Virus record (IMG/VR): IMGVR_UViG_3300045988_035176
Coordinates: 1 to 37,271 of that record
Length of the DNA: 37,271 nt
DNA from: a virus
Direction: 5' to 3' (one strand)
Shown here: positions 16,996 through 35,571 of the stretch, in pieces
Layout of the letters: every line of letters starts with the position of its first letter
How positions within the stretch are numbered: position 1 is the stretch's first letter
Position numbers and translations under genes: made by a program
Notes under the pieces: model-generated
Told to the model about the DNA's origin: nothing
The model's input: the letters and a program-made list of their open reading frames with translations, nothing else
Database searches by the model: none

Positions 16996-17463
16996 TTATG
17001 CTGTGCGCTTCCAAATGTTAACTGCTAGATATGGTTGCATATTGTTATGGGCGAGTAGACCGCCTTCAGAAGTCGTCCTGTATTCCATATGTCCATACGT
17101 ATTATCACCATCAACAGGAACATACCATATGTTCCCATCAGCCACATTTGTTGGCCACGAAGATACCTTTCGACCGTCATCACGAACAAATTTATGTTGA
17201 TGTTGCGGCATCTCGCTGATGGTTAGTTTGTGTGTTGATTCTCCGCCAGTACTTCCAAGTACGTATTTTTCTCCGCCCTGTATTAAGCAATGTCCTTCCG
17301 CAATTTTTGACCATGTTCCACCGAATGATGTATTCGGGTTAAAGCTAGAGCTAATGCTCATGTAGATACTTCCAACTGGATAAGCCTGAAGCGGTCCAGG
17401 CATTTTAGCTTTTATCTTTCCCCAGAAGTATTTAAGTCCTGTTTGATCTAAATATTTAGCCAT
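16996..17463 (-). CDS. Tail-collar-domain fibre protein.
   Basis: PVGSIYMS...GGESTHKLTISEMPQHQH...HNNMQPYLAVNIWKRTA is the phage tail collar (MdpB-like) signature. The N-terminus LDQTGLKYFWGKIKA is typical of fibre proteins. Confidence 0.7.
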   Translation of the reverse strand: MAKYLDQTGLKYFWGKIKAKMPGPLQAYPVGSIYMSISSSFNPNTSFGGTWSKIAEGHCLIQGGEKYVLGSTGGESTHKLTISEMPQHQHKFVRDDGRKVSSWPTNVADGNIWYVPVDGDNTYGHMEYRTTSEGGLLAHNNMQPYLAVNIWKRTA

Positions 17464-17472
17464 TTTTCCTCC

Positions 17473-17853
17473 TTAACTAGCGACAATTGTGTCGATTTCT
17501 GAATTGGTAATTGCCGAGACACTTGTTGCGCTCAGACTATCTAATTTAGCTTTATCAGCTGAAGACATCAATCCATTTGTATTCTGTGTCGCAACTCCAT
17601 ATGTTGTATTGTTATCCTGCTGAGTGAACGTAAATGTTGTTCCATCTAATGCCGTTGCCGTAAATGTTGTTCCTGATCTTGTAATGCTTTTTATCGCCTT
17701 TGACTGATCATAGTTTGCAACGCTTCCTAGACCTACTTGTGATTTCGTGACTCCATGTGGATTGCTTTTATTGCTTATATGGGTTCTGGCTGCGGAATCC
17801 TTTACCGTGTATGTTGTGCCACTTGGGAGTTTAATACTTGATACATCAGCCAT
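17473..17853 (-). CDS. Fibre protein, paralog A (126 aa).
   Basis: The N-terminus MADVSSIKLPSGTTYTVKDSAAR is paralogous to the 17868-18446 product. It has a GLMSSADKAKLD fibre-repeat motif. Its C-terminus NSEIDTIVAS is shared with the collagen-like protein. Confidence 0.5.
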   Translation of the reverse strand: MADVSSIKLPSGTTYTVKDSAARTHISNKSNPHGVTKSQVGLGSVANYDQSKAIKSITRSGTTFTATALDGTTFTFTQQDNNTTYGVATQNTNGLMSSADKAKLDSLSATSVSAITNSEIDTIVAS

Positions 17854-17867
17854 TCAAGCACCCCCTT

Positions 17868-18446
17868 TTATTTTGATGTTATCGTTTCGCTTGTGCCTGT
17901 AAACGCTGGTGCGGATGCACTAGCGGACTTAATGCTTGTGGCAACTGTCACCGCTGTTCCTTTTGTTGGCAAAGATCCTGCTGAAAATCCAAGTGTTAGA
18001 ACCTCATTTGAAACCGATGCCGTGAAACTTGGTAATGTGCCTACACTATTCATAGGCGTAACACTCGCTGTATTTACAGCAACCGAAACAGTCGGTGCTG
18101 AAACTGAACCTTTCGGTGTATATGATGCACTCGCAGAATCCTTGAATGCCAGTCCCTTAAGACTGCCTGTACTACCGAACTCGTGCCACTTGCTATCTGA
18201 TGTAGACCACACAAGTTCAAGCGAATTGTAAATTACAACGTCACCGTTTGATGGCGTATAATCTGCATTATTGATCTTGATTGGTGATGTGCTAGAGCCA
18301 TTCGCAAGTGCCGTTGTTGTAACTCCTGCGTAATGCATAGCACCTGTTGCAGAGCCCTTTATAATGCTAATGTCATGTCTTGCTGTTGCATCTTTGATGT
18401 CGTAAGTTGCTCCACTAGGTAATGTGATTTCTGAAATATCTGCCAT
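17868..18446 (-). CDS. Fibre protein, paralog B (192 aa).
   Basis: The N-terminus MADISEITLPSGATYDIKDATAR matches paralog A at about 17 of 27 residues. The remainder is Ser/Thr/Ala-rich. Confidence 0.5.
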   Translation of the reverse strand: MADISEITLPSGATYDIKDATARHDISIIKGSATGAMHYAGVTTTALANGSSTSPIKINNADYTPSNGDVVIYNSLELVWSTSDSKWHEFGSTGSLKGLAFKDSASASYTPKGSVSAPTVSVAVNTASVTPMNSVGTLPSFTASVSNEVLTLGFSAGSLPTKGTAVTVATSIKSASASAPAFTGTSETITSK

Positions 18447-18775
18447 TATTGTCCTCCTATTATCAGATTTCCTTCGTTAACAGTATACGTCGTACTGCTG
18501 TTCCATTTAAGCCTGTCTGTACGTGATACGTGTATATCCGCATTGCTTGTATGTGTATTTATTTCGCTGTTCAAATTTTCAAACTTTTTTTCTGCTTCGC
18601 TTGCGCTCTCAATATCATAATCCGCAAGTGCTTTGTTTCCTTTTACCTCAACGTTGTTGATTTTAGGAATATTTGTTAGTTGATTATAATCGTCTGTACC
18701 AACAACTGAAACGCTATCCAATTTTACGGTTAAGTGATCATCGTCCGCAAGCATGATAATCTTATAATCATCCAT
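18446..18775 (-). CDS. Fibre-related protein (109 aa).
   Basis: DYNQLTNIPKINNVEVKGNKAL is a motif common in Gram-positive phage tail fibres. Confidence 0.5.
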   Translation of the reverse strand: MDDYKIIMLADDDHLTVKLDSVSVVGTDDYNQLTNIPKINNVEVKGNKALADYDIESASEAEKKFENLNSEINTHTSNADIHVSRTDRLKWNSSTTYTVNEGNLIIGGQ

Positions 18776-18778
18776 GCT

Positions 18779-19132
18779 TTACACCCCTTTTTCGGTATCA
18801 CATGCAAATGTGACTTCTTCCGTGATAATCAGCTTACCAATAAACGTCTGATGTATCTGGTCACCTCTGATAAGCTCAATGTCATAATAATAAGTACCAA
18901 AATCAATGTAGTCTGTATCTTCTGGCTTAATCGAAAATGAATATACATTTCCATCTTTAGTTATCGTTCCATCAGTCAGTTTTTTTTGAATGATAATCTT
19001 TCTCGATGATGTATTTGCTTTTACCGTAAATGTGATTTGAGTAAATCCTTTGCTTACCTCTGCATCGTTTGCATCGTGAACGGTAAAATGAATGTTTCGC
19101 AAGTCACCTCTCGGCATTGTAATGTGTTCCAT
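18779..19132 (-). CDS. Beta-sandwich-like tail accessory protein, paralog 2 (117 aa).
   Basis: It is homologous to the 19390-19731 product. Compare IKPEDTDYIDFGTYYYDIELIRGD...FIGKLII with VPEDTKDIESGHYFYDMQIEINGD...LIGALKI. Confidence 0.45.
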   Translation of the reverse strand: MEHITMPRGDLRNIHFTVHDANDAEVSKGFTQITFTVKANTSSRKIIIQKKLTDGTITKDGNVYSFSIKPEDTDYIDFGTYYYDIELIRGDQIHQTFIGKLIITEEVTFACDTEKGV

Positions 19133-19140
19133 GTTATCAC

Positions 19141-19374
19141 CTACTCTTTCACGATAGTATCAATTTCATTATTTGAAATAGATGAGACTGGAATAATATC
19201 AGCCCACTCGTATTCATAATCGGTGTTGCTTTTCTTTTTCAAAAACTGTCCTGTTGTACCACCTGTTGGAATGCCTTCCCCTTTTTCACCGTTCAGGCCA
19301 TCTTTACCATTCAGGCCTTTTTCACCTTTCAGCATGAAAACCTTACATACAGGTTTTGTAAAGTATTCGCCCAT
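19141..19374 (-). CDS. Collagen-like repeat fibre protein (77 aa).
   Basis: It has six G-X-Y triplets (GEKGLNGKDGLNGEKGEG) and the C-terminal motif NNEIDTIVKE. The ATG at 19374 is preceded by a G8-containing RBS. Confidence 0.6.
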   Translation of the reverse strand: MGEYFTKPVCKVFMLKGEKGLNGKDGLNGEKGEGIPTGGTTGQFLKKKSNTDYEYEWADIIPVSSISNNEIDTIVKE

Positions 19375-19389
19375 TTTATGCACCCCCCC

Positions 19390-19731
19390 CTAGTCTGTGA
19401 TTCCATTTCGTATTTTCAACGCACCTATCAGGATAGTGAACACATCGCCATTTATTTCAATTTGCATGTCGTAAAAATAATGTCCTGATTCAATGTCCTT
19501 TGTATCTTCAGGCACAATTCGCACCACGTAATACATCTTGTTGCGCTCCTGCTTCCTGAATGAGATTCCATCTTCAAGTGTTTTCTGAAATACGACATCG
19601 CCATCATCAAGATTCTTTTTGCACGTGAAGAGCGCTTTTTCAAGCTGTTGCGGTTTGTCATCGAACTCAATCTCAACCGCAAATGACAATGTGTCGCCTT
19701 TTATCATTTCAAGATTTGTCTTTTCCATCAT
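19390..19731 (-). CDS. Beta-sandwich-like tail accessory protein, paralog 1 (about 113 aa).
   Basis: It is paralogous to 18779-19132. A GAGGTGG RBS is present and the start overlaps the Dit stop. Confidence 0.45.
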   Translation of the reverse strand: MMEKTNLEMIKGDTLSFAVEIEFDDKPQQLEKALFTCKKNLDDGDVVFQKTLEDGISFRKQERNKMYYVVRIVPEDTKDIESGHYFYDMQIEINGDVFTILIGALKIRNGITD

Positions 19732-20429
19732 ATCCACCTCGACAGATTTTCAAATGCAATATATGTAAGCTGTCCATCCCATGACACGGAATTAGGACCG
19801 ACTTTCAGCATAAATTTGTCGTAATTTCCGACAACGTATCTGTTCATCAATACATCATCATTATACGCTTCGAGCCTTTCTGTGTCTATTGTGATGGAAT
19901 TTGATGTACTCATATCAATCCGAAACAACTGCACACCATTCAACGACAGATTGATTGTTCCTGAACCCTTGATATGAATAATTGGCTTGGAAACATAATT
20001 GCCGTTATTTCTCACGGTAATAGCTCCAGTTGGATTGTCAAATACCTTCATTTTTTCAAGTGTGCTGTACTTGAACGGTTGCACATGATACGTGATCTCA
20101 GCCGTTCTGAACCTCATAAGGCGCTCATAATCGACAGCATCAAGAATGTCATATTTGTAATATCTTTCTTGCTCGTTTGAAAACGTGACTGTTCCGCTCG
20201 AATTGAAAAACGTAATAATATCATCAATATCATAGTCACCAAACAGCCCGATCTTCATTTTTTTATCATAGGCTGAATATCCTAGCCTTGTGATAACATC
20301 ACCATCACGACCATCTATCTGCTCAATGCTCGTTCGCATCAATGGCTTTGTAATCGGTGGCAATTCCTGTATCAGCAATCCTTTTAAATATCGGCTGTCA
20401 AGCCCATTTTGAATAACATAATTTCTCAT
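19728..20429 (-). CDS. Distal tail protein (Dit, siphovirus tail component).
   Basis: It lies immediately after the tape measure gene. The size (233 aa) and the N-terminal pattern G.DSR.L.GLLI.ELPPIT.P..R fit phage tail-family proteins. Confidence 0.7.
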   Translation of the reverse strand: MRNYVIQNGLDSRYLKGLLIQELPPITKPLMRTSIEQIDGRDGDVITRLGYSAYDKKMKIGLFGDYDIDDIITFFNSSGTVTFSNEQERYYKYDILDAVDYERLMRFRTAEITYHVQPFKYSTLEKMKVFDNPTGAITVRNNGNYVSKPIIHIKGSGTINLSLNGVQLFRIDMSTSNSITIDTERLEAYNDDVLMNRYVVGNYDKFMLKVGPNSVSWDGQLTYIAFENLSRWI

Positions 20430-20441
20430 ATTTTTACCGCC

Positions 20442-22949
20442 TTAGTTATAAATCAGTTTTGTCACCGTTTTGTCAACGAAATGACCCATTTCTTCATCAT
20501 CCATCACGATTTTAACTTGTGATAAAGCTTCCTTGAATGCATCAACCATGTTGTTATAGCTTCCACCGCCTGTTGAAATACCACCGTTCACATTGAATGC
20601 ATCAGACATACCATTTGCCAGTGCTTCAGTCTGATTTATCAGCTCTGGGCTTGCTTTTCTCAAGCTATCGCTCAACCCTTCAACCATGTCAGGCATCCAG
20701 CTCTCGTATTCAGCAAGAGGCCCTTCGTCAGGTCTTGAGAAATGAAGAAATGACTTGATTTTTCCTGCGACATCGCTGACTGCACTTGTGACTTTATGAA
20801 TTGCACTCCTGATGCCGTTTGCAATGCCACTAATCATATCGACACCCCAGTTGTATAACTGTCCAGGCAATGAACTGATACCATTAATAATAGTACTTAC
20901 AACATTGCCAATAGCTCCGCCAAGATTTCCTATCATGGATGAAATACCGCTAATGAGTGAGCCAATAATCTGTACGCCCATAGATAGAATCTGTGGCAAG
21001 TTCTGAATCAATGTCTGCACAATTGATATTATTATTCTCGGCGTAGCTGCAATCAACTGTGGTAAAGACTGCATTATTCCATTGATAAGCGCTACAAGAA
21101 TCTGAATACCTGCATTGATAATAACAGGAAGATTTGCAAGTAATGTTGTTGAAACCGTGTTAATAATCGTAGGCAACATAGCAATTAACTGTGGCAATGC
21201 TTCAGTAACGCCATTAATTAAAGCTACTAACAACTGCACACCTGCATTGATAATAACAGGAAGATTTGCAAGTAATGTATCAACGGTCTGCTGAATGATT
21301 GTAGGCAACATTGCGATCAACTGTGGCAATGCTTCTGTGATTCCCTGAATGAGCGACGTAATCATCTGTAAGCCCGCATTGATAAACTCCGGTAACAGAG
21401 TAATCATAGCCTGTATAATCTGCATAATACCATCAACAACAACAGGCATCATCTGTGGGATAGCTTCAAGAACCGATTGAATCACATTTGTAACTGCTGT
21501 TATAAGCGTTGGTAACGTGTCGCTTAGAATAGGCGGAATCATTTGTACAAGCTGTGGTACGACCGTCTGGATAAGCCTTGTCGCCACTTCCGCACCACCC
21601 TTGATAATCTGCTGTACCCTTGGGATTATGTTACCTGCAAAAGCCGTAAGGCTCTCTACAAAATCGTTTATCAGTGCGCCAAAGTCTGCGTTATCGTCTG
21701 CAATGCCAGTCAGAAGGTTCTGCCAGCTGGCCTTCATCATGTTCGATGAACCCTCGATTGTGGTGGATGCTTCCTTTGCAGACGTTCCCGCAATTCCCAT
21801 GTGCTTCTGCATTACTGAAATCGCATTTACACAGTTTGCAAAGCTCATTGAGTTAGAATCTACCGTAACGCCAAGCTCACTCTGTACGTCCTTCATTTGT
21901 GATGCATCTTTGATAAGGCGCTTCATTTCCTCAGCAGTACCACCATATCCAAGTTTCAAGTTGTCAAGCATCGTATAGTTACCCTTTGCAAATCCTTGAT
22001 ATGCGTTCTGGATATCCTGCATAGATGTTCCCATTTTGTTTGCATTGTCCGACATATCAATGATTGCACGGTTGGCATACTCCACCGCCTGCTGTGTGTC
22101 ACCACCAAGTGAGGATATTAAGCTTGCAGAAAAGCTCGTTGCAGTCTCCATGTAGTCGTTGGCAGATATCTGAGCCGTCTTGTAAGCTTCAGAAGCGTAT
22201 GCCTTCATCGTGTCAGCTGAATTGCCGAACATCGTTTCGATTCCACCAATAAGCTGCTCATAGTTTGTGTATGAAGCAAACGCCTGTTTTCCTACGTCAA
22301 CAAGTGCAGAACCAATTTGCTTTAGCCCATTTCCAACCGCTCGTATAGCATCGGTTGTAAGGTTGGCAAGAACCCCCTTCATGACCGTGAAGCCATCGCC
22401 AAGTTTTTTTGATGCATCATCGGCATCATTCATTTCTTTGCCAAGGTTGTCAATCTCTTTCGCTGTCTTGTTAACATCCGCTTGAGCATTGTTCATCTGC
22501 ACTGCAAGCTTTGACAATGATTGCTTGTTTTTGTCCTGCGCTTCGGTGCTTTCGTCATACTGCTTTTGAAGATCATCAACAACCCTTTTCTGTTCTTCAT
22601 ATTCTTTGCTGTTTTTTCCAACCTGAGCTTCAATGCTTGCAAGTTTTCCCTTTTCACTTTCAAGCTTTTCACCGAGTTGCGCATGCTCATCTGCTGACTG
22701 TTTAACAGCATCCTGATACTGTTTATACTGGTCAGACACTAACTTCAGCTTCGATTTCTGCTCTTCAAGGCGCTTGTTCAGCACGTCACTCTTGGCTGTC
22801 AATGCTTCGGTGCTTGTGTCGTTCTTGTCGTATGTACTCGTGACAACCTTCATTTCAGAAGATACCTCACGCAAGTTCTGCGTAATCTGACTCAATGCAC
22901 GCCTGTATTCGCTTTCGCCTTTTAACTTAATTGTTCCACCAAGCGCCAT
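20442..22949 (-). CDS. Tape measure protein.
   Basis: About 835 aa with an N-terminal coiled coil and four tandem 44-aa hydrophobic repeats. It follows the frameshifted chaperone. A GAAGGGGG RBS precedes the ATG at 22949. Confidence 0.9.
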   Translation of the reverse strand: MALGGTIKLKGESEYRRALSQITQNLREVSSEMKVVTSTYDKNDTSTEALTAKSDVLNKRLEEQKSKLKLVSDQYKQYQDAVKQSADEHAQLGEKLESEKGKLASIEAQVGKNSKEYEEQKRVVDDLQKQYDESTEAQDKNKQSLSKLAVQMNNAQADVNKTAKEIDNLGKEMNDADDASKKLGDGFTVMKGVLANLTTDAIRAVGNGLKQIGSALVDVGKQAFASYTNYEQLIGGIETMFGNSADTMKAYASEAYKTAQISANDYMETATSFSASLISSLGGDTQQAVEYANRAIIDMSDNANKMGTSMQDIQNAYQGFAKGNYTMLDNLKLGYGGTAEEMKRLIKDASQMKDVQSELGVTVDSNSMSFANCVNAISVMQKHMGIAGTSAKEASTTIEGSSNMMKASWQNLLTGIADDNADFGALINDFVESLTAFAGNIIPRVQQIIKGGAEVATRLIQTVVPQLVQMIPPILSDTLPTLITAVTNVIQSVLEAIPQMMPVVVDGIMQIIQAMITLLPEFINAGLQMITSLIQGITEALPQLIAMLPTIIQQTVDTLLANLPVIINAGVQLLVALINGVTEALPQLIAMLPTIINTVSTTLLANLPVIINAGIQILVALINGIMQSLPQLIAATPRIIISIVQTLIQNLPQILSMGVQIIGSLISGISSMIGNLGGAIGNVVSTIINGISSLPGQLYNWGVDMISGIANGIRSAIHKVTSAVSDVAGKIKSFLHFSRPDEGPLAEYESWMPDMVEGLSDSLRKASPELINQTEALANGMSDAFNVNGGISTGGGSYNNMVDAFKEALSQVKIVMDDEEMGHFVDKTVTKLIYN
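20940..21467 (-). repeat. Four tandem 132-bp (44-aa) coding repeats within the tape measure gene.
   Basis: On the minus strand, units start at 21467, 21335, 21203 and 21071. The unit consensus is EALPQLIAMLPTII...LLANLPVIINAG.Q.LVALING... Units 2 and 3 are nearly identical. Confidence 0.85.
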
Positions 22950-28765: not shown

Positions 28766-30460
28766 TTAAATCATCTGGAACGTGAAGTCACCTTCATTTA
28801 AGAAATAATCCTGCTCAAGAAGGTAAATTGCATTGATAAGTGATACCACCATATCAACCTTGCCGTTGCTCTTTTTCTTGCTCACGTACATGTTTTTGTT
28901 GGTGTCATATGCACATTTCGCATTCTGAAAGTTGATTTCAAGAAGTTTGTTTTCTGTGTATTTGAATTTCTGCTTAAGTATTGCTTCTTTCATCCTCTTT
29001 GTCGGAGAATGTAACACGCTTGAATACTGCTTTATTTGAACCGTGTTATAGCCTTCATTAGCCAATTTCTGCGCTGTACTTAATGCATTCCATCTATCAT
29101 ATCCAATCGCCTGAATTTGCACGTTATAACGGCTTTCAACACTCAAGATTAATTGCTCAACAAATGCATACGAGATAACTCTGTCACCGCATGCAAATAC
29201 CTTCCCACTCTTTAATAGTTCTTGATAGTTCACACGCTCTGAGACTGTTTTCTCCGTGATCCTGTCTGCTGGAATGAACGCAAAACTTTCTGCAAGAATG
29301 TTATCATCATCATCGACAGAAACCATGGCAACAGATGTATTATCGTTCGATTCTGAAAGGTCAACACCTAAATATACGACTCTGCCGTTCCAATCAATAT
29401 TCGCAACCTTGCATGCTTGAACATCTTTAACATCAATAAATGTTTCAGTTCCTTGTCCTTGATAAATGATATTGCAGTGCTTTGTAACAAAGTTCTCTCG
29501 CTCGTTTTCAATAGCGATGGCTCTGGCTCTTTTCTTTACAAGATCATCCCAAATTTCAGGGATTTCCAATGCCGCAGGATTCGCCTGCTTTAAAACCATG
29601 TCGTCAGTTTCCCAATCAGACGTTTTGTCAGGCTCATACAGCAGTGCAAATATTGTTTCGTCTTTCTCGATGCCATCAAGAACCTTTTTGGCATATGCGA
29701 CCTCATCCTCGAACGGATTGTCGATTGTCGGATATTTTGTACTGATAACGAACCCTAGTTTGTTGACAACGTTAAGCTGTCCAGAACGCATAGCTTCAAC
29801 AGGATAGCCGTTCGGCAATGCTCCAACCTCATCTGCGATAAATGCGTTCGGCATACGTCCGTCCATACGGTTGTTACTGTATGCAAGCGGTATAAGCGTG
29901 TTTTCGTTTGGCTTGAACTTGATGTAGTCCCTTAACAACTTGAAACGCTTCGTTCCTTTGTACTCATATAACAGTGGACTGCTTTTGATTGTATCTGAGA
30001 TTGCTTCTTTTATCTCTCTCGATAATGCACCGTCTGGTGCAACTGAAAAGAACTTTGAGAACCTTGGTTCTGTCAAAAACAAGATGATGAAGATTGTGGC
30101 GACCGTGTACGTCTTGAAGTTCTTTCTGCAAATTTCCAAAATCCCTGTCTCGTATCTGCGCTTGTTTGGCTTGTCACGGTATACAGTGCATAGCATGGAT
30201 GTATAAAATAGCCACTGATAACCAGTGGCACACTTATACATCGACTGTCCTGCTTTCAATCCTTTCGGCATGTTAAGCAGTTTCAGAATGTTTTCAATCT
30301 GTTGAACTTTCTTTTCGGATACGAAATATTTCTTGTCTTTTCCTTCAGCAATCCGCATCCATGCTTTCATTTGTAACTTAACGTACTTCGGTGTGACTTT
30401 CTTTCTAATAGATTTTTTGCAACATTCATAAGCCTTACTGCTCGTCACCGCCATCATCTT
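28766..30460 (-). CDS. terL: Terminase large subunit.
   Basis: About 565 aa in the Terminase_1/COG4626 pattern, with a Walker A-like CRKNFKTYTVA and a C-terminal nuclease domain. It overlaps the terS 3' end. Confidence 0.9.
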   Translation of the reverse strand, partial: KMMAVTSSKAYECCKKSIRKKVTPKYVKLQMKAWMRIAEGKDKKYFVSEKKVQQIENILKLLNMPKGLKAGQSMYKCATGYQWLFYTSMLCTVYRDKPNKRRYETGILEICRKNFKTYTVATIFIILFLTEPRFSKFFSVAPDGALSREIKEAISDTIKSSPLLYEYKGTKRFKLLRDYIKFKPNENTLIPLAYSNNRMDGRMPNAFIADEVGALPNGYPVEAMRSGQLNVVNKLGFVISTKYPTIDNPFEDEVAYAKKVLDGIEKDETIFALLYEPDKTSDWETDDMVLKQANPAALEIPEIWDDLVKKRARAIAIENERENFVTKHCNIIYQGQGTETFIDVKDVQACKVANIDWNGRVVYLGVDLSESNDNTSVAMVSVDDDDNILAESFAFIPADRITEKTVSERVNYQELLKSGKVFACGDRVISYAFVEQLILSVESRYNVQIQAIGYDRWNALSTAQKLANEGYNTVQIKQYSSVLHSPTKRMKEAILKQKFKYTENKLLEINFQNAKCAYDTNKNMYVSKKKSNGKVDMVVSLINAIYLLEQDYFLNEGDFTFQMI

Positions 30461-30809
30461 CACCACCATTAATGATCTTCATAAGCGGGTCTGCATCCTC
30501 GGTTGTATCACTTACATTATAATTTTTAATGATCTTCATAAGAGTTGCAACTGTTCTATTTGCACTATCTGTCGTTGCATTATAATCTTTTACTGCTGGA
30601 CTAGAATATAGATTTTTTCTACCTTTAACATATTCTTTTTCAACTAATATTCCATCATCTTTTATAGATTTTTCTAATTCATATAACATAACTAATTGCA
30701 TTTGATATCTTTTGAAAGTAGTTATAAAAAAGTAATTACTTTGTACTCCACTTTCTTCTGCAATTTTTAAAATCTCTTGTGCTTGTTCGGATAAAGTCAT
30801 TTTTGCCAT
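30435..30809 (-). CDS. terS: Terminase small subunit (P27/Terminase_4-like).
   Basis: A 124-aa protein directly upstream of terL. The pattern ...YQMQL..LYELEKSIKDDGILVEKE...LYSSPAVKDYN...A.RTVATLMKII fits the P27 family. An HNH endonuclease is present in the genome, as is typical for this family. Confidence 0.6.
   Translation of the reverse strand: MAKMTLSEQAQEILKIAEESGVQSNYFFITTFKRYQMQLVMLYELEKSIKDDGILVEKEYVKGRKNLYSSPAVKDYNATTDSANRTVATLMKIIKNYNVSDTTEDADPLMKIINGGEDDGGDEQ
30469..30542. repeat. 17-bp perfect direct repeat TTAATGATCTTCATAAG (30469-30485 and 30526-30542) at the GC-content break inside terS.
   Basis: The copies were read directly and are 57 bp apart. They encode the duplicated peptide LMKII in the TerS C-terminus. 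Confidence 0.9.
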
Positions 30810-30830: not shown

Positions 30831-31382
30831 TTATTTAAGATTTTTTATTTGATATGATTTATTATAACTCTTTTGGTCCTTAATCATAATTTTTAAAAAA
30901 TCTTCTCTTGTTAAATCAGATAATCTAAATACTTCTTCTGGTTTCATTCCTAATTCCTTACATATTTCTTTTGTTGTTTTTCCTTCATCCAATAATTCTT
31001 TTACTATCGCTTTCATTGGTTCTAATAAATGAGTTCCTCTTGCTCTATTATGTGTGATAGTACCATAGATATCTTCTGCATGGTCTTTATGGTCCACAAT
31101 AACAACTGGAACTTTATTTTTTAATAATGTTTTTAATGGTTCTCTACCTGATACAGTCCATCTATGAAAACCATCTATAATTGTATAATCCGGTCTTATA
31201 ACTATTGGCATAGTCCAACCATTTGTTAATATAGACTGAACTAATAATTCAAGATTTTGTTCTGATACTTTATTTGGGTTGTAATTATTTGGCTTTAATA
31301 AATCTCTATCAACAAATTTAACATTTTCTAAAGGTTCTAATATATTTTTATTTTCATATTTTTTTATTTCATTTTCTTTCAT
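30831..31382 (-). CDS. ParB/Srx-fold protein, IbrB-like, with a C-terminal HTH.
   Basis: Motifs NNYNPNKV, IIDGFHRW and HNRARGTH are typical of IbrB-type ParB-like nuclease-domain proteins. A putative HTH is TTKEICKELGMKPEEVFRL. A 4-nt overlap links it to the upstream gene. Confidence 0.7.
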   Translation of the reverse strand: MKENEIKKYENKNILEPLENVKFVDRDLLKPNNYNPNKVSEQNLELLVQSILTNGWTMPIVIRPDYTIIDGFHRWTVSGREPLKTLLKNKVPVVIVDHKDHAEDIYGTITHNRARGTHLLEPMKAIVKELLDEGKTTKEICKELGMKPEEVFRLSDLTREDFLKIMIKDQKSYNKSYQIKNLK

Positions 31383-32473
31383 ATGCTACTCTCCTTCGCT
31401 ACATCCATAAACAATTTTAAATCTAAAGCTCTTATTGATCTTCCTTTGGGATCTCCACCAATTACTATATTACATAACTCTTTGTAATGTTTTTGATTTA
31501 AAAATGGTCCATATTTAATTAATATTCTATTAATACGCTTTTTTACATACTGCATAGATTTATTATCAAATCTCCATTCTTCTTTCATCATTCCAAAGAA
31601 CTTTTCTTTATAATCAACTTCTTCATCTTTCTTTGCTTGTTTATTTTTCTTTTGTCTTCTAAATAATTCAGTATCATAATAAAGCATTGCCATATAAGCA
31701 TTTGGTTCTCTTTTACAAATCTTATCAAATAGCCCAGGGTAAAATTCACACATGTTAACAAGACTTCTTATTGTATCTATGCTAAAAAATTGACTTATTC
31801 TTAATCTATTAATTGGAATTCCTACTTGATACATAAATTTATAGGCATCTGGAAATTCTAAGTTATTATCTCTTATATACATCCATACATCTTTATCGGT
31901 CCAATCATAGATAGGAAACATTTTTTCTTGTGATGTTCTACTTGCCAAATTCATTGATCTTTGAATACTTTCACTTGCTCTAACACCAATTAATGATACA
32001 CAATTTTTATTTTTTTTATCCATAAATTTTTGATAGGTATCATGTCTTTCATTAAGTAATGGATCATTTGTAATTGCAAATTTTGGTTTTTGTCTTATCC
32101 ATACATCTTTTTTAGTTTCATCCCAACAAATAAAACTTTCATCATTTGCTAATTGATTTAAGCAATTATAATGTTTTACCTGAATACACCACCAATTAAA
32201 AGGTACTCCAATACTCAACCATTGTAGTCTAATGCTTTTTACTTGTTTTTCTACACAAGGATAAATTGCTTCTTCATCTATAAAATCAACAGTTAATTTT
32301 GATTTATCAATTTCACCATTTTGGCATAATTTAAAAATCAGATCATTTAAACAAATACTATCTTTCCCACCACTTACTGATAATTCAATTCTACTAGCAG
32401 TATTAAATATATTTTTTATTCTTGTCTTTGCCATTGTTACAACATCAACATTTGAATATTGTTTTTTAATCAA
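31379..32473 (-). CDS. PP-loop ATP pyrophosphatase, PAPS-reductase family, IbrA-like (with a DUF3440-like C-terminus).
   Basis: It has the canonical PP-loop SVSGGKDS, then GVRASES and PIYDWTDKDVWMYI. The C-terminal region ...FYPGLFDKICKREPNAYMAMLYYDTELFRR is also present. The ECG(L/I)H redox motif of true CysH is absent. Confidence 0.75.
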   Translation of the reverse strand: MIKKQYSNVDVVTMAKTRIKNIFNTASRIELSVSGGKDSICLNDLIFKLCQNGEIDKSKLTVDFIDEEAIYPCVEKQVKSIRLQWLSIGVPFNWWCIQVKHYNCLNQLANDESFICWDETKKDVWIRQKPKFAITNDPLLNERHDTYQKFMDKKNKNCVSLIGVRASESIQRSMNLASRTSQEKMFPIYDWTDKDVWMYIRDNNLEFPDAYKFMYQVGIPINRLRISQFFSIDTIRSLVNMCEFYPGLFDKICKREPNAYMAMLYYDTELFRRQKKNKQAKKDEEVDYKEKFFGMMKEEWRFDNKSMQYVKKRINRILIKYGPFLNQKHYKELCNIVIGGDPKGRSIRALDLKLFMDVAKESSI

Positions 32474-33083
32474 GATAAATCATCTCCCCACAAGAAGGGC
32501 ATATAATATATTTCTTCTCATTTTTTTCAGTACCGACTTTTGTTTCCGTTACCATTGTTACTGGCTCGTTTTTAATTTCTGGTTCTTTTTCAATATAAGT
32601 ATTATTTGTTTCTTGCTTTGGTTCTTCTTGAATAAATTTAGTATCTGTTACAACTCCATAATTACTAATTGCTTCTTCAACTTGTTCATCTGTTGCAGTC
32701 ATTTGCTCCAAAATATACTTGTCATAACCAGCGATTTCAAAATCTCCCATTCCAGTTATCTCTTGGATGTAATTATTTATTTCATCGTAATTTTCTGCAC
32801 CCAAGCTATAAATTTTATTATCACTTAAAATTAATTTTTTCTTTTCAACTTCTGATAGACCTGTTTTTCTATAACATTGAACATCTGCTTTATTCATTTT
32901 TACTAAAGCAAAATATAAGCCATTACCAATTAAGATATTATTATCTTCATCAATAACCATTGCTCTTGTCTGTCCAAACTGTTCTACACTTTTAATTAAT
33001 TCATCAATTTGTTTATCATTATGTTTTCTAACATTCTTCTCCAATGGTTTTAGATCATTTATTTTTACTACTTCTAATTTCAT
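32466..33083 (-). CDS. ParB-like N-terminal domain protein (degenerate) with an acidic linker and a C-terminal CxxC.
   Basis: KINDLKPLEKNVRKHNDKQIDELIKSVEQFGQ...ILIGNGLYFAL follows the ParB-N pattern seen in phage ParB-methylase fusions. The GxxR arginine box is replaced by GNGLYF. The C-terminus contains CPSCGEMI. Confidence 0.6.
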   Translation of the reverse strand: MKLEVVKINDLKPLEKNVRKHNDKQIDELIKSVEQFGQTRAMVIDEDNNILIGNGLYFALVKMNKADVQCYRKTGLSEVEKKKLILSDNKIYSLGAENYDEINNYIQEITGMGDFEIAGYDKYILEQMTATDEQVEEAISNYGVVTDTKFIQEEPKQETNNTYIEKEPEIKNEPVTMVTETKVGTEKNEKKYIICPSCGEMIYLD

Positions 33084-33084
33084 C

Positions 33085-33897
33085 TCATTTTCCCCTACTT
33101 TCTAAAAATTCTCTAGCACTTGTTAATCTGCTACTAGCATTTATTACAATGCTTTTATCAATATCATATAATTCTTGCCATACTTCATTTTCTGTTTTAT
33201 CCATTATGGCTCTTTCAGTCCATTCTCCCATTGCTATTGAACCCATTAAAAAACCCCTATCCCATTTATAAAATGGTGGTAATTCTATATTGTTATATTT
33301 TATATAAGCAAGTAATTGTTCTGCATTCCAATTAGCAAGAGGAGAAAAGACATCATAATTGCTCTTACTAACAATATAATTATTTTCTTTATTTCCACAT
33401 TGGTTTCCATCTTTAATTCTTCTTCCTGCGATAAATAAATCAAAATTATATTTAGTAATATCTTTATTTTGTCTTTTCCATTTTTCCGCCATCCAATTTT
33501 GTCTAGTATTACATTTACAAAATAAATACTGTGGATGTTTTTCTAAATATTCCAGACTATATTTATCAATAACTTCTTCAATTAGATTTTTAGGTTTGTT
33601 TTCATTAATCCATTTTCTCATTTCTGGGTATTCATTAATACCACACCAGAATATAGGTGTTGATTCAATTTTAGATTTATTAATAATATCTTGTAGTACA
33701 ATACTATCTTTACCTGCTACCCAACCATTACAAATATTTTTATACTTTTTTGATATATCTCTAATAAATGATGTTGTTTCATCTGTTAATTTATCAATAT
33801 CTTCTTTGCTGTAAATGGTAGTACATTTATCAAATGCTTCTAACCATTCACTATTATCTTTTATATTTTGTTTTTTAGTCAGCATAGTATCACCCAT
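33085..33897 (-). CDS. PAPS-reductase-family protein with a degenerate PP-loop.
   Basis: NGWVAGKDSIVLQDI occupies the place of the SGGKDS loop. It is followed by FIAGRRIKDG and PLANWNAEQLLAYIKYNNIELPPFY. An 8-nt overlap links it to the permease gene. Confidence 0.55.
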   Translation of the reverse strand: MGDTMLTKKQNIKDNSEWLEAFDKCTTIYSKEDIDKLTDETTSFIRDISKKYKNICNGWVAGKDSIVLQDIINKSKIESTPIFWCGINEYPEMRKWINENKPKNLIEEVIDKYSLEYLEKHPQYLFCKCNTRQNWMAEKWKRQNKDITKYNFDLFIAGRRIKDGNQCGNKENNYIVSKSNYDVFSPLANWNAEQLLAYIKYNNIELPPFYKWDRGFLMGSIAMGEWTERAIMDKTENEVWQELYDIDKSIVINASSRLTSAREFLESRGK

Positions 33898-34975
33898 TCA
33901 ATGATTTTACTGATATATAGCCAAGTATTAATGTTGCTATTATAAAACTTATAACTCCAACAATTGAATTAATTGTTATTTGTCCTAAAGTTGCAAATAA
34001 TACCATTAGTCCAAATGTTATTGCTGATACTGGAATTACTATATTTGTTTTTTTCTTTAATGCTAATGGTAATAACAAAATACCAACTGCAAATGCAAAT
34101 CTAATAACTCCAAATGAACTCCATAATTGAAGCATTCCCATTTTAACAAATACTCCAAATGTAATACATAAGAATAGTGAAAGTCCTGTTCCTATTCTCT
34201 TATTTCCTACTTCATGAAGTGCTACTGCAATACTATCTATTGTTGATGTAGTTACTCCAAGAACTGCTACTAATAAAATAATATGCATTGGTAGTGTAAA
34301 TTTAAAGAAGGCCATTCCTAATATTAATAACATATAAATCCCAAATAAAAATGCTCCTAAATAATAACCTTTTTTACTTTCATCTGCTTCTGCTCTTTGC
34401 CAATGTTGTACATCTCCAATAGGCCCAGCGAATAAAATAAGTCCAGACCATACTCCCCATAACACACCACTCATGCTAGTTGGTGCAAATACTTGTAATG
34501 GGGCTTTTGTAAATATTCCAACTGCTATAATTGCTATAATTGATACAATAGCAATGATCCATTGATATACATCTGTTTTAACTGATGTTGGTAGTCCTTT
34601 TTTGTAAACAATTAGAGTAAAGAAAAATCCTAATGCTATTGTTATCAAATATGATGCAGTTGTACTACCTGTAATAATTAGAAATTGTTGATTTATAAAA
34701 TTCAACTGAACTAATAAGCAGAATAATTGAATTACTAATGCTATTACTTTTACTTCTTTTCTATTATAAGTTTCTGGACTAATTTTTTTATTGTTATATA
34801 GCCATCCAAATAATGCAAGTGTTAAGGCATTACAAACAGCCCATACAATCCATGCGATTATACCTTTCTCTTGAGCTATTTGTTGTCCCATGATTAAAGA
34901 TGTTCCCCAAGCCCAACTTGCAGCACTTGAAGCACCTATTTTTTTAAAACTTAGATTCTCATTTTCCATTTTCAT
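33890..34975 (-). CDS. Polytopic membrane protein, putative SSS/LeuT-fold-like permease (361 aa, about 10 TM).
   Basis: About ten hydrophobic segments are visible. GPIGDVQHWQRAEADESKK resembles the G.dQ...QR..a.k motif of sodium:solute symporters. The N-terminus GASSAASWAWGTSLIMG resembles SSS TM1. An AAAGG RBS is present. Confidence 0.55.
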   Translation of the reverse strand: MKMENENLSFKKIGASSAASWAWGTSLIMGQQIAQEKGIIAWIVWAVCNALTLALFGWLYNNKKISPETYNRKEVKVIALVIQLFCLLVQLNFINQQFLIITGSTTASYLITIALGFFFTLIVYKKGLPTSVKTDVYQWIIAIVSIIAIIAVGIFTKAPLQVFAPTSMSGVLWGVWSGLILFAGPIGDVQHWQRAEADESKKGYYLGAFLFGIYMLLILGMAFFKFTLPMHIILLVAVLGVTTSTIDSIAVALHEVGNKRIGTGLSLFLCITFGVFVKMGMLQLWSSFGVIRFAFAVGILLLPLALKKKTNIVIPVSAITFGLMVLFATLGQITINSIVGVISFIIATLILGYISVKSLNG

Positions 34976-35003
34976 TTACTACCTTTCTTATATCGCCCGC
35001 TCA

Positions 35004-35019
35004 TGTTCCACGTGGAACA
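35004..35019. promoter_or_regulatory. parS-like site TGTTCCACGTGGAACA. It is perfectly symmetric and forms the core of the 18-bp palindrome at 35003-35020.
   Basis: It matches the Firmicute Spo0J/ParB parS consensus TGTTNCACGTGAAACA at 15 of 16 positions. It lies 28 nt upstream of the permease ATG, inside the operon leader. Confidence 0.6.
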
Positions 35020-35070
35020 TTTTCGCATGATTTTAGCTTCTTTTTAAAGCGAAAAACGGCTTATACTCAC

Positions 35071-35100
35071 ATTATAGCGTGAATTTGGCCGTTTATCCAA
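35071..35100 (-). promoter_or_regulatory. Sigma-A-type promoter of the AT-rich operon (TTGGAT, 18 nt spacer, TATAAT).
   Basis: The minus strand reads TTGGATAAACGGCCAAATTCACGCTATAAT. The 7-bp inverted repeats AAACGGC/GCCGTTT (35054-35060 and 35088-35094) bracket the -10 region. Confidence 0.5.
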
Positions 35101-35190
35101 AAAATCTTAGTATTTTATAATTTTTGTGATTAGTTATATAGACGTTTCATCTTGGTGTCACACCAGACAATGCCCGTTACCATGGGGGGA

Positions 35191-35571
35191 TTACTTCAGC
35201 TTCTCGATTCTCTGCCTAGCTAGCTTCTTTAGATACTCGTTATCAATCATTCCTGCATCAGCTAACCTGTGACAGTCTTTGCATAAGCATATAAGGTTAT
35301 CATCATCCAACCATAGCTCTGGCTTATCCTTCAGCTTCTCTATGTGATGCACCTCTACATTTCTATAGTTATATATGCCTTTGTCTTTACATACTTCACA
35401 TAGATAGTTTGCATCCTCTCGTATCTGCTTGCTCTTCTCTGTCCATGCACTCTTGCTTCTTAGCTTTGATTCTTTGTAGCTGTACTTGTACTTCTTCTTT
35501 TCTACATGGCATACATAACCTTTCGGATGTATCTTCCCGCACTTACTACAAGCATAGTACCCTTGTGCCAT
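35191..35571 (-). CDS. HNH endonuclease (packaging-associated type).
   Basis: It has N-terminal CxxC pairs and the motif VEVHHIEKL...NLICLCKDCH. Its ATG overlaps the endolysin stop (TAATG). Confidence 0.85.
   Translation of the reverse strand: MAQGYYACSKCGKIHPKGYVCHVEKKKYKYSYKESKLRSKSAWTEKSKQIREDANYLCEVCKDKGIYNYRNVEVHHIEKLKDKPELWLDDDNLICLCKDCHRLADAGMIDNEYLKKLARQRIEKLK

Follow-up and report, generated by a model that had tools for sequence, protein, structure and literature searches.

Our data indicate that the phage genome represented by the window (the whole stretch of DNA analyzed here, 37,271 nt) carries, judged by its sequence, a genuine chromosomal-type parS site at which ParB is predicted to bind. 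This site belongs to the phage backbone and is independent of the cargo genes that follow it. We hold with moderate confidence that it is an orphan host-type parS, most likely read by the ParB (Spo0J) protein of the host, which would couple phage DNA to host segregation.

Reading the window revealed a single perfect palindrome of 18 bp, ATGTTCCACGTGGAACAT, whose 16-bp core, TGTTCCACGTGGAACA, is itself perfectly symmetric. With up to three mismatches allowed, the core has no other match in the window; shuffled windows are expected to contain 0.11 such matches (at least one match in 10 of 100 shuffles), and the chance expectation of an exact 16-mer is approximately 1e-5 per 37 kb. The first-pass annotation of this DNA had described one perfect parS-type palindrome and given its coordinates and its distances to the promoter and to the next start codon, all of which were correct on recheck. 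Its 18-bp extent is present in the window, while the part beyond the 16-bp core varies in relatives: the outer A..T pair is particular to the window genome and most relatives have G..T. We therefore rejected 18 bp as the functional unit, and the conserved unit is evidently the 16-bp core.

The core is identical to parS2 and parS3 of Pseudomonas aeruginosa, which are perfect-palindrome chromosomal parS sites, and TGTTCCACGTGGAACA is the chromosomal parS reported for both P. aeruginosa and P. putida. The consensus reported for Bacillus subtilis and Corynebacterium glutamicum (Firmicute/Actinobacterial) is TGTTNCACGTGAAACA; the core fits this as well as TGTTNCACGTGNAACA, consensus sequences that come from other bacteria and may differ from that of the host of this phage. 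Recognized parS half-sites include both GTTCCAC and GTTTCAC, and both half-sites of the window core are among those accepted. The core is thus a 16-bp palindrome of the TGTTNCACGTGNAACA type whose homologues differ at tolerated positions with interchangeable half-sites, and the parS-type identity first proposed for it stands on the exact P. aeruginosa match, the consensus fit and the half-sites. Chromosomal parS sites share with it the sequence as well as the tolerated variation at positions 5 and 12 and in the half-sites, but they are clustered near oriC, whereas the window site is single, is located on a phage and has an inverted repeat (IR1) upstream of it at fixed spacing.

Table 1. Positions of the palindrome, the surrounding junction elements and the cargo genes in the window
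Feature	Position	Strand	Remarks
parS core TGTTCCACGTGGAACA	35004..35019	.	kept, or altered only at positions 5/12, in 35/37 related genomes
18-bp palindrome ATGTTCCACGTGGAACAT	35003..35020	.	outer A..T genome-specific
IR1, GCTTT-AAAAA-GAAGC	35036..35050	-	TGTTTC-AAAAA-GAAACA in relatives; 15 nt from parS
Sigma-70-like late promoter, TGGATA-17-TATAAT	35071..35099	-	conserved in junction alignments; overlaps family-wide TTTTTTGGA motif
Predicted cos cleavage region, ...CAAGATG/AAACG... (slash, cut)	35137..35160	-	cut near 35147/35148, from c5 homology
HNH endonuclease	35191..35571	-	last gene ahead of cos; Pfam HNH, PHROG 144
Cargo gene 1, polytopic membrane protein, 361 aa	33890..34975	-	no family match; positional counterpart in FP_Taranis annotated as transporter membrane protein
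Cargo gene 2, PAPS-reductase-like, 270 aa	33085..33897	-	PF01507, phrog_424
Cargo gene 3, ParB/Srx-like (ParB205), 205 aa	32466..33083	-	phrog_620; LIGNGLYFA; C-terminal zinc-ribbon-like CPSC
Cargo gene 4, IbrA-like, PAPS-reductase family, 364 aa	31379..32473	-	PF01507, phrog_2302, weak BrxP match
Cargo gene 5, IbrB-like, ParB_N + short HTH (ParB183), 183 aa	30831..31382	-	PF02195, phrog_2159
TerS-position protein, 124 aa	30435..30809	-	phrog_13845; backbone resumes; adjoins TerL in all relatives
Terminase large subunit (TerL)	28766..30469	-	Pfam TerL_ATPase + TerL_nuclease; 76% identical to c5 TerL

On the minus strand, the gene order is holin, GH25/CW_7/LysM endolysin, HNH endonuclease, a 215-bp intergenic region containing the site, and an island of five cargo genes; 3' of the island are the TerS-position protein, TerL, the portal and the structural genes. 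The GC content of the five-gene island is 26-31%, against approximately 40% elsewhere in the genome. The site is located at about +44 to +61 of the predicted late promoter, and the core is 28 nt from the ATG of the first cargo gene, at 34975. In relatives the arms of IR1 are the same as the parS arms with a different center, and the 15-nt spacer between the two is A-rich. Apart from these repeats, an inverted repeat (AAACGGC at 35054-35060 and GCCGTTT at 35088-35094) flanks the -10 box of this promoter on both sides, and a TTTTTTGGA(A/T)AAA motif over the -35 box is kept even in phage c5 and distant relatives. Both are candidate late-activator or small-terminase (cosB) sites.

The surroundings of the predicted cos match the annotated cos of c5 in sequence (...ATG/AAAC...) and in spacing, 32-33 nt after a C-run and 43 nt before TTTTTTGG, and the ends of approximately 10 related metagenomic contigs cluster near it, within about 60 nt. 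Given this match and the clustering of contig ends, we infer the cut given in Table 1, which would place parS about 128-130 nt inside the left genome end. The site itself was considered as a cos or packaging signal and rejected, since it is deleted in viable-looking relatives and the cos, about 130 nt off, is found in c5 without a parS.

To gather relatives among viral contigs, we searched with the exact 16-mer, with the TerS-position and HNH proteins, and with the pattern of the module described below. The junction is covered by 37 genomes of a close clade, the window included, in which the HNH protein, where present, is at least 88% identical. A single metagenome dataset supplied nearly all of these relatives, which share 85-97% identity, and few independent events are therefore represented. 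The exact site is found in 30 of the 37 genomes, five carry variants at position 5 and/or 12 only (T/A in L131, C/A in L192 and L258, T/G in L225 and L260), and two are without the site: L197 shows a clean deletion, and in L200 other sequence has taken its place; promoter and leader remain in both. Decaying copies are present in two relatives with 70% HNH identity. The core is invariant whereas the sequence just 5' of it varies in the junction alignments. Since C/G, T/A, C/A and T/G all occur at positions 5/12 within the family, the halves vary independently, as half-site recognition predicts.

At least three unrelated cargo sets follow the conserved site in the close clade. One is of the IbrA/IbrB type found in the window, along with deletion variants of it; another encodes a ParB_N protein, a 242-aa protein with no Pfam match, QueC, QueD, QueE and FolE; and a further one encodes two TET-associated glycosyltransferases (TAGT), a ParB_N protein and UDP-galactopyranose mutase (Glf). 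Homology between genomes with different cargo stops immediately 3' of ...GGAACAT, directly after the site. Moreover, L215 keeps the site with its ParB-like gene deleted, and L197 and L200 keep the ParB-like gene with the site gone. Farther out in the family, at 40-56% HNH identity, ParB_N cargo is present and the junction has no site.

A second position for the site was found in six related contigs, in which a perfect parS-like palindrome is present approximately 20 nt upstream of the tape-measure start. Three of these have TGTTCCACGTGGAACA, and TGTTTCACGTGAAACA, TGTTTCACGTGGAACA and TGTTCTACGTAGAACA occur once each, the last with a half-site seen in P. aeruginosa parS5. The palindrome sits in an insert of approximately 48 nt that is missing from the close clade and from L147, and this insert shares with the junction leader a short inverted repeat, (G/T)TTTC-AAAAA-GAAA(C/A), at the same 15-nt A-rich spacing to parS. 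We found the pattern TTTCAAAAAGAA-N14-20-TGTTYCACGTGRAACA in 39 viral contigs, virtually all of them members of this family. Because the order IR1, spacer, parS recurs at the tape-measure insert, we conclude that parS moves as a small module to at least two places in the late region. At both, the site is about 20-30 nt upstream of a start codon within the late transcription unit. Position-independent action in cis is typical of centromere-like sites.

We found the exact 16-mer in at least 120 viral contigs. An apparent viral enrichment of at least 40-fold, obtained against a control 16-mer with scrambled arms (3 contigs), was withdrawn when a second control, with the arms kept and the center changed, gave 66 contigs; since the controls range from 3 to 66 contigs, raw counts do not establish enrichment. 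The location of the matches is more informative: among the matches listed, 60 of 110 parS copies (55%) are intergenic, compared to 5 of 48 (10%) for the arm-matched control (Fisher p = 7e-8). Of 40 genes adjacent to intergenic sites, one, itself from a member of the present family, has ParB_N and none matched a ParA-type family, while the Pfam-matched neighbors are phage genes (Phi29-like capsid, SU10 portal, terminase, exonuclease). This intergenic excess without neighboring parA or parB suggests that borrowing of host ParB could be common. GenBank phages gave no nucleotide match to the region. Within the same metagenome, an unrelated set of contigs (L013, L030, L068, L072-L074, L080, L086 and L108) has an identical parS approximately 30 nt upstream of an RBS, with conserved flanks. 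Another contig family has a tandem pair, TGTTCCACGTGGAACA, 8 nt and TGTTTCACGTGAAACA, upstream of a 487-aa ORF (L056 310-349, L087 3372-3411, L120 about 9-52), which is closer in look to a classical multi-site centromere.

One alternative is a phage-encoded reader of the site. In this reading, a phage ParB/Srx-like protein such as ParB183 would load at the site and autoregulate the cassette, or slide from it in the manner of KorB and BisD, and nearly all family members do encode at least one ParB_N protein beside the site. ParB183, in addition, combines ParB_N with an HTH and is weakly alignable to Spo0J through the HTH region. Its score on TIGR00180 is 38 bits, under the 58-bit cut-off. At the position of the GERRxR motif of canonical ParB, ParB183 has IIDGFHRW and ParB205 has LIGNGLYFA; ParB205 lacks the arginine motif and gave no PDB match, and profile searches detected no ParB HTH (PF17762), PF23552 or dimerization domain in the cargo ParB-like proteins. 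The identical site precedes cargo sets whose ParB-like proteins are only 26-36% identical and differ in their C-termini, and ParB183 is missing from the Que and TAGT cargo. Nor does the site co-occur with the ParB-like gene of the element across relatives. Besides the discordant L215, L197 and L200, a ParB-like gene without the site is found in c5, phiLdb and four unrelated IbrA/IbrB phages (FP_Taranis, phiAQ113, CHPC1230 and 022DV001). In all four of the latter, no parS-like site with up to two core mismatches was found within approximately 20 kb or to the record end. We therefore consider it very unlikely that the site is an autoregulatory operator, since it is backbone-borne and cargo-independent and the phage ParB-like proteins are without canonical motifs.

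These results bear on several proposals of the first-pass annotation. Its suggestion that the phage ParB/Srx-HTH protein loads at the site or uses it as an operator is not supported, given L215, L197, L200, FP_Taranis and the missing ParB motifs, and the check it proposed, for conservation of the site beside IbrB-like genes in other phages, showed no site in the four IbrA/IbrB phages examined. Its statement that the phage has no ParA, and hence no classical plasmid-prophage partition cassette, agrees with our results: among the window ORFs scanned, no match to a ParA-type family was found, and neither the ParA ATPase nor the canonical ParB of a type Ia cassette was detected. The integrase that it reported is present as a large serine recombinase, alongside a CI-like repressor, ERF, SSB and a DnaC-like loader elsewhere in the phage. 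Finally, the host-ParB reading that it had raised is favored by the comparative evidence of a backbone-borne, cargo-independent site.

Of the cargo proteins themselves, the IbrB family of ParB183 has annotated homologs in 226 cultured phage records (tblastn), while the IbrA-like gene, as sole protein query, recovered only the same clade. FP_Taranis (L232), a Faecalibacterium myovirus with a GC content of 56%, has a cassette arranged in the same way at 17167-20504: a membrane protein, a ParB-like 'nuclease', IbrA and IbrB are encoded there, flanked by a RinA-like activator and terminase. Since this IbrB shares 68% identity with that of the window, the IbrA/IbrB end of the cassette, at least, is mobile among gut phages that are not related to one another. 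ParB205 and the ParB_N protein of the Que cassette (L016 4465-4950) are both missing the arginine motif of the ParB nucleotide pocket, and both end in CxxC zinc-ribbon-like C-termini (CPSCGEMIY and CPYCHKQF) after an acidic linker.

A host search, consisting of one genome-contig scan, yielded no more than three goat-gut MAG contigs from different bins, at 49% identity, and no record with the exact integrase sequence was found. Integrase homologs are almost only on contigs of at most 39 kb (31-39 kb). In the six integrase loci examined (L182-L187), phage genes are present on both sides, with no integrated copy with host flanks among them; attP is accordingly intact in these loci. Endolysin similarity was tried as a host clue and was uninformative. 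The closest cultured relatives by TerL (76%) are c5 and phiLdb, which are phages of non-sporulating Lactobacillus.

Given the identity of the sequence, the half-site variation, the cargo independence, the position-independent placement, the dispensability of the site and the precedent of phi29, we propose that host ParB, rather than the ParB/Srx-like cargo proteins, recognizes the site. CTP-dependent clamps of host ParB would be loaded at the site and would spread across cos-proximal DNA, linking the unintegrated phage chromosome to the host segregation and condensin machinery (ParA where present, SMC). Phage DNA might thereby be positioned by, or inherited along with, the host nucleoid, as has been demonstrated for phi29; the benefit could be inheritance or positioning of the unintegrated genome, a carrier state or, in a sporulating host, entrapment in spores. 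Host ParB binding, its spreading, the engagement of SMC or ParA and the benefit to the phage are what we infer from the comparative data.

Among the closest known systems, phi29 is the precedent for a host-type parS on a phage: it has five host-type parS sites, and segregation of its genome into the prespore depends on Spo0J. Like phi29, the window has a chromosomal-type parS on a phage without its own ParA or canonical ParB, with host ParB the presumed reader. Phi29, however, is a virulent, protein-primed podovirus in which several parS sites are accompanied by Spo0A boxes at promoters, whereas the window represents a temperate cos siphovirus with an integrase and one site. Spo0A boxes are not enriched in the window (four TGTCGAA against 4.7 expected), so a phi29-like module is not supported. 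What differs from phi29 is the temperate cos siphovirus, the single cos-proximal site, the mobile module and the hotspot of DNA-modification cargo. The parA-parB-parS cassettes of P1 and N15 also place a centromere-like cis site on a temperate phage, but their sites are element-specific and come with ParA and ParB, whereas the window site is of the host-chromosome type in a phage that encodes an integrase. KorB (RK2) and BisD (ICEclc) are ParB-family clamps that regulate or silence genes on mobile elements, and, as with Noc and its NBS sites, the likeness lies in a palindromic site near promoters of a mobile element with ParB-fold proteins encoded nearby. Those proteins are element-encoded, bind CTP and have their own sites, whereas here the site is of the host type, and the ParB-fold proteins of the element lack the canonical motifs and do not co-occur with it across relatives. 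Finally, c5 and phiLdb (L. delbrueckii group-b cos phages, Cequinquevirus) have the same gene layout as the window (holin, lysin, HNH, cos, ParB_N, glycosyltransferase-like gene, TerS-like, TerL) but differ in having no annotated integrase, a shorter leader and no parS-like site genome-wide.

Several observations weigh against reading by host ParB for segregation. A phage with a serine integrase has no obvious need of a partition aid; there is one site, compared to five in phi29, and no enrichment of Spo0A boxes; the site is dispensable, being lost in 2 of 37 genomes, decaying in two distant relatives and absent from the virulent c5 and phiLdb; and the co-conserved IR1 is not explained by a parS model. 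Host ParB might instead bind the site mainly as a roadblock to transcription or a silencer of the late operon and its cargo, for instance in lysogens. The site lies downstream of the conserved late promoter and ahead of the first late gene, which would suit such a role, as would the placement of both genomic positions inside the late transcription unit shortly upstream of a start codon, and regulation or silencing by KorB and BisD clamps is documented. Yet a block ahead of the tape-measure gene would spare the terminase, head and cargo genes, which makes it an odd control point, and the two close relatives without the site have kept promoter and leader. In B. subtilis, spreading of chromosomal Spo0J is not known to affect transcription much, which also counts against silencing, and we regard this role as unlikely.

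In another reading, IR1 and the palindrome, the latter with a 7-bp stem and an ACGU loop, would form small hairpins in the late mRNA and the resemblance to parS would be coincidental; the hairpins would then act on antitermination, on mRNA processing or stability, or on translation of the gene that follows. Both repeats are transcribed, lie just 5' of the RBS at both positions and move as one module; 98% of the alignment cells are standard pairs, with some G-U in IR1, and both hairpins appear in the centroid fold. Covariation alone does not decide between DNA and RNA, since symmetric changes keep dyad symmetry and pairing alike. However, TGTTNCACGTGNAACA admits no more than about 4 of the 65,536 palindromes that are possible at 16 bp, and almost every variant at the two genomic positions nevertheless conforms to it; the sole exception (L144, changed at 6/11) is still a perfect palindrome. 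Variation in the stem is confined to 5/12 and 6/11, and the C/A combination, which breaks a pair in two independent genomes, remains a normal parS. Rfam gave no match, and the fold predicted for the leader does not exceed shuffles in stability (z = -1.4). We regard an RNA role as unlikely, although the co-conserved IR1, with its G-U-type asymmetries, leaves it some probability. The least probable of all is that the palindrome is a functionless host-derived fragment or a chance occurrence. Its dispensability in some relatives would fit, and part of the conservation reflects shared ancestry, as the close relatives are so similar and from one dataset. Against this, the site is invariant beside a diverging 5' flank with changes limited to position 5/12, it was placed independently at a second locus, and the viral contigs show a strong intergenic excess over the arm-matched control.

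A more elaborate and highly unlikely arrangement would give both kinds of protein a part. The cos-proximal parS, as part of a mobile module spread by phages, would be the entry point at which host and phage meet, and the N-domain-only ParB/Srx proteins of every cargo (IbrB-like, and the partners in the Que and TAGT cassettes) would dock onto, or co-assemble with, host ParB-CTP clamps. The docked proteins would then ride the phage DNA and deliver base-modifying enzymes to the phage genome before packaging. More broadly, phages without partition genes would share the cis module of approximately 48 nt to recruit host ParB.

If host ParB does load at the site, as we favor, the window would join phi29 as an independent second example of a phage that borrows the centromere protein of its host, here in a temperate, integrase-encoding gut siphovirus whose single site behaves as a small mobile module. 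It also calls for caution in annotation, as "ParB-like" phage genes beside a parS do not amount to a partition system here: the ParB_N genes are part of DNA-modification cassettes that can be exchanged for one another, and the parS is part of the backbone. The interval from cos to the TerS-position gene is a hotspot of such cassettes, which form the first genes of the late operon and each have their own ParB_N gene (window 30831-34975; L016 4465-7966; L115 3779-7343; L230 90-1713). The 242-aa protein of the Que cassette is a DpdA candidate. Downstream, TerL is a single 931-aa ORF in L115 (659-3454), L129 (3757-6549) and L253 (2007-4799), with an in-frame insertion of approximately 360 aa after residue 125 that has the appearance of an intein and is a candidate for one.
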